This document shows, piece by piece, positions 21,194 to 23,625 of a stretch of 64,000 bases of DNA. Made by a program: the position numbers and the translations under genes. Source of the stretch: an uncultured Ruminococcus sp. (GTDB lineage Bacteria > Bacillota > Clostridia > Oscillospirales > Acutalibacteraceae). Below the pieces are notes generated by a model. That model was not told where the DNA came from. It did no database searches and saw only the letters and a program-made list of their open reading frames with translations. The stretch's first letter is position 1; each line of letters starts with the position of its first letter. The stretch lies in contig CADACB010000010.1 in the NCBI GenBank assembly GCA_902786345.1, positions 34,723 to 98,722 of the forward strand. Reading direction: 5' to 3'.

Positions 21194-21493
21194 TCATTTT
21201 TCTATTGTCAATATGTTATTTAAGCCTGTCATTGTCATGATCTTCTCAACGTTTGAATTCAATCCTTTTAAAACTACTCCGCCCTTATTTGCTAATTCCT
21301 GTTGTACAAATACAAGAACTCTAAGCCCGGCTGAAGAAATGTATTCCACGCTGCTGAAATCAAAAATCATTTTATCGCAGCCGGAAAGATTTACTTTTAC
21401 CTCTTTTTCGAGATCGGGAGCGGTGAGCGTGTCAATTCTGCCATCAATAACAAGTGTACACTTATTTCCTGTTTTTGTTGATGAAACCTTCAT
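21194..21493 (-). CDS. STAS-domain protein (anti-sigma-factor antagonist, SpoIIAA/RsbV-like)
   Basis: 99 aa with DFSSVEYISSAGLRVL, carrying the conserved phosphorylatable Ser position. It is the first gene of the minus-strand export operon. Confidence 0.85.
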   Translation of the reverse strand: MKVSSTKTGNKCTLVIDGRIDTLTAPDLEKEVKVNLSGCDKMIFDFSSVEYISSAGLRVLVFVQQELANKGGVVLKGLNSNVEKIMTMTGLNNILTIEK

Positions 21494-21660
21494 ATGTTGT
21501 TCCCCTATTCTATTTTTTTATTATTATAGCATAATAATAAGCTGTTGTCATTATTTCCCGGGCAATTTTTCATAAATCCGCGTAAAATCCACCTCTGTAG
21601 TTAGTGACATTTTTTTTATTATGATGTATAATAGTTTAAAAACCATAAGGAAGTACGAAC

Positions 21661-23625
21661 ATGAAGCTCTCTATATTCAAAAAGGTCGCCCTTTGGCTTT
21701 TGATTATCATAGGCACTGTCGAAGCCGCCATGATGATTGCCTTATACAGCTACACCTACAATAACGCTGTTAATAAGGCAACCTCCGATATTAAGGAGGC
21801 TGCAAGGTTTGCCGCAAACCAATTAACCTTCTTTAACCCGGAGACCTTTGCAGTTGAATCTAATGAGGAAAGTATTATCATCTCTCAGTTGGACAGCGGC
21901 TGCAATCAATACGATATAGACAAAATTTATCTTCTGTTACCCGATTTGCGAAATAACACAGTTATGTATCTTGAAAGAGGTATCAACGCTAAAGAAGAGG
22001 CAAAACCAAATACCCATTCTATTGATGATTTAACAGGCAATTATGTTGAGGGCGGTATGACCGCTGAAATGAAAAAGGCATTTTTGGGCGACGACAGCGG
22101 TGTTACCGCACATATTCAAAACGAAAAAGAAGATATGCTCGTTTGCTATATGCCCGTCATAAATTATGCGGACAGTAAACACATGCCAAAAATCGGTGCG
22201 CTAATAAGCGCTGAAATTTCCATTTCCGGAGTTATGGAAGATATAAACGCACAATTCCGTGACTTTGCTATAATTATGTTTATTGTAACGATAACAGTAG
22301 GTATTTCCGCTGCTGTTATCCTGTATTTTATGGTGACAAAGCCGCTGAAATTTATCAGCAGCAAAATGAAGGGCTTTGTTTCCGACCGTAATGCAGCGTT
22401 TAAAAAGCTTCCTGTTAAGGGCAGCGATGAGCTTGCGTTAATGTCGGCTTCCTTTAACACCATGGTTGAAGAAATCGACCGCTATATTGACGATGAGACC
22501 GAACTGAACCGCCAAAAATCCGAGCTGAATATCGCTCAATCCATTCAGATCGGTCTTCTGGAGCCACAAGCCTTCAAAAATGACGACGTTACCGTAAAGG
22601 CTTCGCTGAAAACGGCAAAGATTGTTGGCGGTGATTTGTATGATTATCATGTGCTCCCAAACGGCAATGTTTTTGTTGCGGTTGCAGATGTTTCGGGCAA
22701 GGGTATCACAGCCGCCTTGTTTATGTCGCGAGCGTTAACGCTTTTAAATCAATATGCTGAGCTGGGATATTCCCCCGCAAAAATGCTTTTTGAATACAAC
22801 AACAATCTTGCCGGACATAATCCGAATTTGATGTTTATCACCACCTTCGCTGCCGTTTATAACCCGAAAACAAAAGAACTAATCTATTCCAACGCGGGTC
22901 ATAACTATCCATATATTCTCTCGGATAAACTGATAACGCTTAACGAAAAAAGCGGACTTATAGCAGGAGTGTTTGCGAATTCACAATATCCTGAATACAA
23001 AATTCAGATGAAAGCAGGAGACAAGCTGTTTCTGTTTACCGATGGCGTAACGGAAGCACAAAATAAAGAGGGAGAATTTTTCGGAGAAGAAATGCTTGAA
23101 AAGGTTTTGCTCAGTCATATAGATTATGATGGGATAGATTTGATGAACGCTGTAACAGAAAAAATCAACGCCTTTGCACAGGGTGCAGAACAAGCAGATG
23201 ATATTACAATGCTGGTGCTCCAAATCAATTACAATAAAGCAAAGAAACTTCGTTTGGAAGCAAAAACAGACAATTTAGAAAAAATCACTCAACTCATTTC
23301 CGAGTTGGATGTTTCTGACGATGTCCGTTATCAGCTCAATATTATCTCTGAAGAGGTGTTTGTTAACATCTGCTCCTACGCCTATCCTGAAAAAGACGGA
23401 GAAATCGACTTTACTCTTGTACCCAAGGACGACAAAATTGTGATAATTTTTGAAGACAGCGGTATCCCATTTAATCCAGGAAAAAATCGTATCAATATTG
23501 ACGAATATAAAACACATCCAACCGTCGGCGGATTGGGCAGACACATTGTTTTTTCGAGTGTGGATGATTATTCCTACGAACGCAAACAAAATAAAAATGT
23601 TTTAACGCTAATAATAAACACTTAG
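21661..23625 (+). CDS. Membrane sensor with HAMP, a PP2C (SpoIIE/RsbU-type) phosphatase and an RsbW-like HATPase kinase domain
   Basis: 654 aa with two TM segments flanking an extracytoplasmic region of about 180 aa and a HAMP-like linker. PP2C motifs GGDLYD, VADVSGKG, FTDGVTEA and DDITMLVL. The C-terminal part has EEVFVNICSYAY, DSGIPFNP and GGLGRHIV. Confidence 0.85.
   Translation: MKLSIFKKVALWLLIIIGTVEAAMMIALYSYTYNNAVNKATSDIKEAARFAANQLTFFNPETFAVESNEESIIISQLDSGCNQYDIDKIYLLLPDLRNNTVMYLERGINAKEEAKPNTHSIDDLTGNYVEGGMTAEMKKAFLGDDSGVTAHIQNEKEDMLVCYMPVINYADSKHMPKIGALISAEISISGVMEDINAQFRDFAIIMFIVTITVGISAAVILYFMVTKPLKFISSKMKGFVSDRNAAFKKLPVKGSDELALMSASFNTMVEEIDRYIDDETELNRQKSELNIAQSIQIGLLEPQAFKNDDVTVKASLKTAKIVGGDLYDYHVLPNGNVFVAVADVSGKGITAALFMSRALTLLNQYAELGYSPAKMLFEYNNNLAGHNPNLMFITTFAAVYNPKTKELIYSNAGHNYPYILSDKLITLNEKSGLIAGVFANSQYPEYKIQMKAGDKLFLFTDGVTEAQNKEGEFFGEEMLEKVLLSHIDYDGIDLMNAVTEKINAFAQGAEQADDITMLVLQINYNKAKKLRLEAKTDNLEKITQLISELDVSDDVRYQLNIISEEVFVNICSYAYPEKDGEIDFTLVPKDDKIVIIFEDSGIPFNPGKNRINIDEYKTHPTVGGLGRHIVFSSVDDYSYERKQNKNVLTLIINT

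Follow-up and report, generated by a model that had tools for sequence, protein, structure and literature searches.

Partner switching is best known for the freeing of sigma factors; non-sigma outputs are few, and most of the targets are unknown. Here, we describe a partner-switching pair predicted from a 64,000-nucleotide stretch of the genome of an uncultured Ruminococcus sp. (GenBank assembly GCA_902786345.1, contig CADACB010000010.1, positions 34,723 to 98,722 of the forward strand; hereafter, the window, with positions counted from its first nucleotide). The pair consists of a 99-aa STAS protein and a divergently transcribed 654-aa membrane sensor, and lies next to a secretion locus that encodes a TetR-family regulator, a 714-aa protein with a double-glycine (GG) leader, two ATP-binding cassette (ABC) proteins and a short HlyD-like protein. 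Sequence and structural comparisons indicate that the two proteins are a genuine partner-switching pair, with kinase and phosphatase on one chain. In our judgement, it is an even call whether this pair is a sensor-driven phospho-switch for the adjacent secretion locus, with an output that would most likely be the control of expression through the TetR-family regulator or an unlinked sigma factor.

Several described systems resemble parts of this arrangement. Rv1364c of Mycobacterium tuberculosis (PAS-PP2C-RsbW-like kinase-STAS; 3ke6) resembles the window sensor in that PP2C directly precedes an RsbW-type kinase and acts on a STAS domain. However, Rv1364c is cytoplasmic, with a PAS input and a fused STAS domain, whereas in the window the input is transmembrane, Cache-like and HAMP-like, and the STAS protein is encoded by a separate, divergent gene. 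In the HsbR-HsbA system of Pseudomonas aeruginosa and the CrsR-CrsA system of Shewanella oneidensis, both enzyme activities reside on one protein and set the phosphorylation of the STAS partner (PMC6482189). These systems share with the window the order input-PP2C-kinase/anti-sigma, the separate STAS gene and the location of any sigma target elsewhere, but HsbR and CrsR are cytoplasmic, receive their input at a receiver domain via a phosphorelay and have RpoS, FlgM and HsbD as outputs, and no link to an export locus has been described for them. Fused PP2C-kinase regulators are, therefore, already established; what is new here is the membrane-bound Cache/HAMP input on such a fusion and, chiefly, the repeated finding of partner-switching genes beside NHLP-type double-glycine exporters.

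Partner-switching parts without a local sigma output, as in the window, are also known. In Vibrio fischeri, SypE both phosphorylates and dephosphorylates the STAS protein SypA, the target of which is unknown, and BtrU/V/W of Bordetella are needed for type III secretion (PMC8256260). However, SypE is soluble, and the Btr proteins are products of separate genes that go with a type III system rather than the peptidase-containing ABC transporter (PCAT) of the window. The domain order of SypE is reportedly kinase-REC-PP2C. MlaB is an example of a STAS protein of a single domain whose gene goes with those of an ABC transporter; the position that corresponds to the phospho-serine is part of its interface with MlaF, and phosphoregulation has been posed as an open question (PMC7367683). 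Unlike the window protein, MlaB has no known kinase or phosphatase, and Mla is a lipid importer-type complex. In Anabaena, HenR/All4160 are reported to form a phosphatase-kinase-STAS switch with a non-sigma target in the making of an exported envelope polymer (bioRxiv 10.64898/2026.04.08.717354), but there the STAS domain belongs to a glycosyltransferase fusion, the kinase genes lie elsewhere and no ABC/PCAT pump is involved.

The export genes of the window resemble the NHLP/Nif11 trio TIGR03794/03796/03797, that is, a C39-peptidase ABC protein, a second ABC protein without the peptidase and an HlyD-like protein, which go with Nif11-like or double-glycine precursors (Haft et al., 2010, PMC2887384). 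Counterparts of the three genes are present in the window, but there the scores fall just under the equivalog cutoffs, the HlyD-like protein is only about 140 aa long and the cargo has 714 aa. The founding paper on the trio is silent on STAS or anti-sigma parts, and a survey of rumen bacteriocins (PMC13289728) is silent on an association between switch and exporter. In the literature that we searched, there was no description of STAS, RsbW or PP2C genes linked to PCAT or NHLP exporters, which is no proof of novelty.

The STAS protein and its membrane sensor

The switch genes, their domains and the region between them are as follows.

21194..21493, minus strand: STAS protein of the anti-sigma-antagonist type, 99 aa, with a predicted phospho-acceptor, Ser54, in YISSAGLR (Pfam STAS, TIGR00377, alignment to solved chains)
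21661..23625, plus strand: membrane sensor, 654 aa, with a first transmembrane segment (TM1), a Cache/PDC-like ectodomain, TM2, HAMP-like helices, PP2C and an RsbW-type kinase (Pfam, alignment, AlphaFold2, Foldseek, profile hits)
Input part of the sensor: TM1, aa 8-31; ectodomain, aa 32-198; TM2, aa 199-227; HAMP-like helices, to about aa 299
22660..23226, plus strand: PP2C (SpoIIE-type) phosphatase domain, aa 334-522 (PF07228, E 2.5e-48)
23281..23613, plus strand: RsbW/SpoIIAB-type serine kinase (HATPase_c_2) domain, aa 541-651 (PF13581, E 3.5e-13)
21494..21660, no strand assigned: divergent control region with back-to-back sigma-70-type promoters for the STAS protein and the sensor (promoter scan)

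In profile searches, the STAS open reading frame (ORF) matches Pfam PF01740 (E 6.6e-15) and scores above the cutoff of the NCBIfam anti-sigma factor antagonist model TIGR00377 (62 bits versus 53.45). As a single domain, it aligns over its full length with the solved structures of TM1442, a SpoIIAA-like protein, RsbV and mycobacterial antagonists, and its YISS54AGLR is the residue-for-residue counterpart of YMDSAGLG in TM1442 (1sbo) and of the same segment in the other solved antagonists. We take the serine of the TM1442 DSAG motif to be, by position, the phospho-serine of SpoIIAA and RsbV; Ser54 is thus predicted to occupy the phospho-acceptor position. The SpoIIAA/RsbV-like protein of 99 aa with a conserved serine that the initial annotation had proposed is therefore borne out. 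Membership in the MlaB family is not indicated, the score on model NF033618 being 26.1 bits (cutoff 90).

The sensor carries the two transmembrane segments that had been annotated, seen as hydrophobic stretches, whereas the HAMP domain annotated with them is recovered only as a partial match below the threshold (19.9 bits versus a cutoff of 25); no Response_reg match to a receiver domain was found in the protein. In the AlphaFold2 model (mean predicted local distance difference test score 78.3), an alpha/beta PDC/Cache-like ectodomain lies between the transmembrane helices and is followed by a helix-loop-helix linker, the PP2C domain and the kinase domain. The top Foldseek match of this model is 3ke6, the RsbU and RsbW domains of Rv1364c (E 5e-17), and the sequence profile of the sensor reaches chains of RssB, SiaA, SpoIIE and RsbW (for the latter, 6m36_A, E 8.7e-5). 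The PP2C domain has structural or profile matches to SpoIIE, RssB, SiaA and RsbX, and the kinase domain scores far under the cutoffs of the RsbW equivalog models. Across 18 aligned full-length homologues (38-76% identity), the metal-binding aspartates of PP2C (D325, D343, D461, D513 and D514) and the N-box and G-box residues of the kinase (E564, E565, N569, D599, G601 and G623-R627) are invariant, and both activities are therefore probably retained. The co-occurrence of a PP2C and an RsbW-type HATPase domain in a single polypeptide, as initially read from the sequence, is thus upheld by the Pfam matches and the invariant motifs.

A scan for sigma-70-type promoters over 13.0-25.2 kb of the window placed its top two matches (11/12 each) in the 167-bp intergenic region between the two genes, one directed towards the STAS gene (21551-21523, minus strand) and the other towards the sensor gene (21604-21632, plus strand). 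Since the best two promoter matches stand back to back here, the two genes form a unit of their own.

Genomic contexts of the switch and of the exporter

An exact look-up of the 654-aa protein in assemblies gave no hit, and genomic contexts were drawn from homologues in two surveys, together 165 related loci: 85 from rumen Ruminococcus and other Clostridia, collected with the sensor, and 80 metagenomic loci seeded with the peptidase-containing pump protein of the window (ABC1, 49-67% identical). The sensor belongs to a very large family that numbers more than 6,000 relatives at E<=1e-20, and single genomes carry several paralogues. Of the 85 sensor-side loci, 51 have a STAS gene no more than 400 bp from the sensor homologue, in divergent or same-strand orientation; if only the 64 loci with sufficient flanking sequence are counted, the figure is 42. 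The STAS-sensor pair is the conserved unit. The nearest relatives that bear the kinase domain (L001, L002 and L006) are 75-76% identical to the window sensor. A second group among the nearest relatives (P0004-P0023; L003, L007-L011 and L013), 525-530 aa long and 60-77% identical, ends cleanly after PP2C, and no RsbW-like gene was found in the flanks of these kinase-less forms, which extend up to 10 kb in L008, L009 and L011 and are shorter in the others.

The kinase-less loci provide a second conserved arrangement. In L007, L009, L011 and L013, the STAS gene is followed by a homologue of the 714-aa protein and, in L009 and L011, then by a TetR gene; in L008, and likewise on the short contig L017, TetR, a different secreted protein, STAS and PP2C occupy the same places. 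The TetR homologues that flank the secreted-protein gene in L008, L009, L011 and L017 are 59-63% identical to the window regulator. The loci with this block lack the exporter, and no flanking genes are shared between them and the window in either direction. The constancy of the four-gene block amid differing surroundings speaks for a functional link of the switch to the TetR regulator and the secreted protein, whether or not a pump is present.

From the exporter side, the pump is accompanied by the second ABC protein (ABC2) in all 80 loci and by a short HlyD-like protein in 74. Unsupervised clustering of the neighbouring genes ranked PP2C proteins, with or without a kinase domain, first (19 loci) and STAS proteins second (14 loci in the main cluster). 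A partner-switching gene is found within 1 kb of the operon ends in 22 of the 80 loci, in 13 of the 34 that have 1 kb or more of flank on each side and, after dereplication at 90% ABC1 identity, in 17 of 61 clusters. By profile search of the same flanks, 42 such genes occur within 1 kb (116 kb of sequence) compared to 29 farther out (492 kb), that is, 0.36 versus 0.059 genes per kb, a six-fold local enrichment (Poisson P ~1e-19), and 38 of the 42 near genes are on the strand of the exporter. STAS genes alone number 18 within 1 kb of the operon ends versus 3.3 expected. The switch-positive loci are spread over at least 12 lineages of the ABC1 tree. Overall, these sequence comparisons indicate that the recurrent link between switch and exporter is real and that one inherited event does not explain it.

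The arrangements vary and include STAS-HlyD, STAS-kinase-HlyD, PP2C-kinase-HlyD...ABC2-STAS and ABC2-STAS-kinase. As a case in point, L090 and L159 mirror the layout of the window, [STAS2, PP2C-kinase] ... [STAS1-HlyD-ABC1-ABC2-TetR-GG protein], and in these two loci, as in L086, a TetR homologue with 43-44% identity lies downstream of ABC2. The STAS gene is tight against HlyD or ABC2 in L090, L159, L122, L135, L147, L148, L150 and L151; in L130, a hairpin separates STAS from HlyD, and in the window a terminator and a promoter do so. More generally, junctions between switch genes and HlyD are tightly coupled in some exporter loci and carry terminator-like hairpins in others. Exporter-adjacent sensors are built like that of the window: L098 has dCache, SpoIIE and HATPase_c_2; L141 has dCache, HAMP and SpoIIE, the kinase being encoded by another gene close by; and in L159 a multi-transmembrane input is joined to SpoIIE and HATPase_c_2. 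No fusions of STAS or kinase domains to ABC proteins were found among the 80 loci. As for a subfamily of exporter-adjacent STAS proteins, the neighbour-joining tree has too few columns and too biased a sampling to decide.

Within the 64-kb window, no ORF of the sigma-70 family was detected even at E<=10, with a profile that recovers proteins of the extracytoplasmic function (ECF) and SigF/E-like types in other loci, so that the absence of a nearby sigma factor noted at the outset holds. Small ECF-type sigma factors (Sigma70_r2/r4) are the third recurrent neighbour of the exporter (16 of the 80 loci), usually directly after ABC2 and beside a GG peptide. They occur together with switch parts in only four loci (L122, L141, L149 and L162), and 18 of the 22 switch-positive loci have no sigma gene in their flanks.

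Further gene combinations came to light in the two surveys. The ECF sigma factors that follow ABC2 are about 160 aa long and paired with a 63-82-aa peptide, the long leader of which ends in GG or AG (e.g., LSDDDLDQVAGG/ANPF); examples are L129 8989-9880, L132 10434-11274, L157 5812-6736, L149 8359-9055 and L162 13216-13927, among others. This pairing suggests a circuit of sigma factor and exported peptide at the ECF-bearing pumps. The gene between the ECF sigma and STAS genes of L149 (9118-10341) and L162 (14000-15199) codes for a protein of about 400 aa that has two internal repeats, lacks a Pfam match and may be a new anti-sigma factor or STAS partner. Directly after ABC2, L142 (10641-13862) and L145 (8678-11899) encode a 1073-aa protein with a Nif11-like N-terminal leader, presumed to be a second case of a very large PCAT cargo. 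Among the sensor-side loci, a 578-aa fusion of a MatE-family transporter to an RsbW-like HATPase_c_2 domain is present in L001 (6227-7963, minus strand) and 26 further loci, as well as in L141 (3-1694). Its recurrent companions are STAS, PP2C-kinase, a PGA_cap protein and a nonribosomal peptide synthetase of about 2,000 aa (A-C-A-PCP-reductase; 35 loci). We know of no description of this transporter-kinase fusion. With fusions in 27 sensor-side loci, this signalling chemistry appears to have been tied repeatedly to membrane export machines.

The secretion locus and its boundary with the switch

The genes and signals of the secretion locus are the following.

21148..21179, minus strand: intrinsic terminator directly 3' of the STAS stop codon (14-bp stem, 6 GC pairs, T run)
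21121..21149, minus strand: putative promoter of the export operon, TTGCAT, 17 nt, TG-n-TATAAT (TGtTATAAT), read from the sequence
20661..21083, minus strand: short HlyD-like protein, 140 aa from MDRKP, one transmembrane segment, within the long ORF 20661-21197 (partial TIGR03794 match, homologues)
18476..20749, minus strand: ABC1, C39 peptidase, permease and ATPase (PCAT; Peptidase_C39, ABC_membrane, ABC_tran; TIGR03796)
16269..18464, minus strand: ABC2, permease and ATPase without a peptidase domain (TIGR03797)
13945..16089, minus strand: probable cargo, 714 aa, with a double-glycine leader of 52 aa that ends in IEIPDEMLAEVTGG and behind which a hydrophobic signal-like stretch is retained (leader alignment)
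13223..13876, plus strand: TetR-family regulator, TetR_N and TetR_C_8, DhaS-like, with a likely start near 13304 (Pfam/NCBIfam, homologues)

In the initial annotation, the STAS gene was the first gene of the export operon. The terminator, the promoter, the position of the HlyD start and a break in codon composition argue against this. The terminator hairpin has a folding free energy of -21.2 kcal/mol (z -3.8), with none of 200 shuffled sequences folding as well, and the extended -10 promoter is followed by a ribosome-binding site, GAGGGTGG, ahead of the HlyD-like ATG at 21083. An alternative HlyD start at ATG 21197, overlapping the STAS gene, was rejected, because the homologues indicate 21083. 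The GC content at third codon positions is 0.35 for the STAS gene and 0.42 for the sensor gene, compared to 0.48-0.56 for the HlyD, ABC1, ABC2, cargo and TetR genes, and is mostly 0.29-0.34 in the flanking housekeeping genes (RNase J/H, NifS, HD, DUF436, IspH-S1, PlsC and Cmk; nifU, 0.40). The segment 13223-21083 has an island-like composition that stops exactly at the terminator 3' of the STAS gene. Across the loci, no shared alternative promoter upstream of HlyD could be singled out, sigma-70-like matches of all strengths being present in every category.

By score, the pump genes are close to the NHLP type. ABC1 reaches 845 bits on TIGR03796 (cutoff 853.3) and ABC2 645.9 bits on TIGR03797 (cutoff 709.4), each the best model by far. 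The real start of ABC1 is probably the ATG at 20656 (MGNVKIK), 4 nt after the HlyD stop codon, which gives 726 aa compared to 721-747 aa for the homologues as called. The HlyD component differs from the full-length (~420 aa) membrane fusion protein of the family: the similarity to TIGR03794 is confined to positions 1-59 of the 421 in the model, which align with residues 53-111 of the long ORF (28.9 bits versus a cutoff of 156.2), and in 74 of the 80 exporter loci the pump is preceded by a homologue of 138-170 aa.

The 714-aa protein has no match in Pfam, NCBIfam or PDB sequences. Its leader (IEIPDEMLAEVTGG) aligns with the GG leaders of small peptides encoded beside related pumps, scores 12.1 bits on TIGR01847 (cutoff 15.7) and gives no match to the Nif11 model. 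A hydrophobic, signal-peptide-like stretch, KGFIPALLASIMVLSSASAIAPVPVSA/AE, is kept after the GG leader. Relatives that are 56-64% identical (L007 359-2359, L009 7452-9407, L011 7174-9078 and L013 3-1064) start with a Sec signal peptide and have neither a GG leader nor a PCAT nearby, so that the family looks to have undergone a change of secretion route. The last ~90 residues of the cargo do not align with the relatives, pointing to a variable C-terminus. Beyond the sensor gene, at 25062-27041 on the minus strand, the translation of a single 659-aa ORF reads as an IspH/LytB-like N-terminus joined to ribosomal protein S1-like repeats.

Possible outputs of the switch

The reading that we favour can be put as follows. 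The Cache-like ectodomain of the sensor would detect something extracellular, and the signal, passing through the HAMP-like linker, would shift the balance between the PP2C phosphatase and the RsbW-type kinase, which in turn would set the phosphorylation state of Ser54 in the STAS protein. The pair would serve the adjoining secretion locus (TetR, the 714-aa protein with the double-glycine leader, the two-ABC exporter and the short HlyD), most likely through its expression, with the STAS protein or the kinase domain targeting the DhaS-like TetR or a sigma factor encoded elsewhere; the pump itself is probably not plugged by the switch. We infer the functional membership of the pair in the secretion locus from gene neighbourhood, with TetR, an unlinked sigma factor and the pump as candidate outputs. 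For this orthogroup, the comparison of loci suggests that the conserved function lies neither in the gating of a pump nor in anti-sigma activity of the kinase domain, since orthologues that lack both pump and kinase domain retain the STAS, PP2C, TetR and secreted-protein genes. We also considered that the pump was recently inserted between the STAS and cargo genes and adjoins the switch by coincidence; the exporter-side survey and the conserved four-gene block make coincidence alone unlikely, and this was dropped as the main reading.

Several observations weigh against this reading. None of the 84 other sensor-side loci has an exporter beside the sensor relative, and in the window itself the terminator and the break in codon composition part the STAS gene from the export genes. 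In L001 and L006, the ~280 bp 3' of the STAS gene up to the contig end hold only non-coding hairpins (the contig of L002 stops ~140 bp past the STAS gene). In the neighbour-joining tree, which is based on a short alignment and a biased sampling, the window STAS protein groups with sensor-paired STAS proteins, apart from most exporter-adjacent ones. Near-duplicate loci inflate the raw exporter-side counts, for which the dereplicated figure is 17 of 61. Finally, the case that TetR may be the target draws on synteny and on the control of DhaS-type TetR proteins, which can be exerted by a protein partner. Of the initial proposal that the module is wired to the exporter, one part stands, in that partner-switching genes are the top neighbours of the exporter and orthologues of the pair adjoin a TetR and a secreted-protein gene, whereas the other part is not supported, given the absence of exporters from the 84 sensor-side loci and the apparent position of the STAS gene outside the export operon.

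The same observations bear on the possibility that the two sets of genes are incidental neighbours, that is, that the pair is one of the many general-purpose partner-switching modules of rumen Clostridia, the kinase domain of which, tethered to the membrane, serves as anti-sigma factor to an unlinked sigma factor, and that the TetR-cargo-exporter block landed beside it. The size of the sensor family and its several paralogues per genome, the lack of exporters in the sensor-seeded loci, and the coincidence of the composition break and the terminator with the junction are all consistent with this, as are the ECF-type sigma genes beside partner-switching parts in four exporter loci and the precedent of the fused PP2C-kinase proteins HsbR and CrsR, which sequester RpoS encoded elsewhere (PMC6482189). 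However, chance neighbourhood sits poorly with the enrichment and same-strand bias at one exporter family across many lineages, with the recurrence of the TetR/secreted protein/STAS/PP2C block amid unrelated flanks, and with L090 and L159, which reproduce the layout of the window independently. Furthermore, sister orthologues without the kinase, that is, the putative anti-sigma domain, keep the synteny. We consider this explanation possible, though doubtful.

Alternatively, the STAS protein, in its unphosphorylated or phosphorylated form, might bind the exporter on its cytoplasmic side, for example at an ATPase domain or at the N-domain of ABC2, and switch transport directly, by analogy with MlaB-MlaF. 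MlaB is a STAS subunit of an ABC transporter, and a phosphomimetic residue at the equivalent Thr52 weakens binding (PMC7367683). Among the partner-switching genes at the pump, STAS is the commonest and abuts HlyD or ABC2 in several loci, most of the switch-positive loci have no sigma gene in their flanks, the promoter upstream of HlyD is an extended -10 promoter of the housekeeping type, and the RsbW-like domain fused to MatE transporters in 27 loci is a physical link of the signalling chemistry to exporters. Against such gating, orthologues of the pair keep TetR and the secreted protein without a pump, the terminator parts the STAS gene from the pump genes in the window, the STAS protein scores far below the cutoff of the MlaB model, and fusions to ABC proteins are absent from the 80 exporter loci, so that we regard it as unlikely.

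An autoinduction loop, in which the ectodomain would sense the exported product or a fragment of it and the switch would feed back on the locus in the role of ComDE/BlpHR-type two-component systems, is in keeping with the common autoregulation of PCAT loci in Firmicutes by their own exported peptide, with the extracytoplasmic dCache domains of exporter-adjacent sensors (L098 and L141), with the Cache-like ectodomain of the window sensor and with the small GG-leader peptides encoded beside regulators and exported in many related loci, but appears improbable here, because the sole evident cargo of the window is a 714-aa protein, not of pheromone size, and the sister loci send the cargo homologue through Sec.

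Returning to the favoured reading, a phospho-switch for the secretion locus, its significance depends on whether the link is functional. If it is not, the pair is merely another member of the known class of fused PP2C-kinase regulators. What recurs in any case, among anaerobes of the gut and rumen, is a partner switch that adjoins one family of peptide and protein exporters and includes a membrane sensor and, as a rule, no sigma gene. Tentatively, and with considerable doubt, one may extend this to the suggestion that partner-switching modules of rumen Clostridia replace two-component systems at double-glycine (PCAT) loci, with the STAS protein acting on a non-sigma target, either the exporter, as an MlaB-like gate under phosphorylation control, or the adjacent DhaS-like TetR, by contact between the two proteins. 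A non-sigma target, if true, would be a new output class for partner switching, and if that target were the exporter, the result would be a phosphoregulated STAS-ABC pair, the question left by the MlaFB work. If the link is functional, such loci, with two regulatory genes and three or four target genes, would provide compact test systems for direct control of an ABC transporter or a TetR regulator by a phosphorylatable STAS protein, and the switch would represent a new layer of control over the secretion of bacteriocins, signal peptides and large proteins in an agriculturally relevant microbiome.

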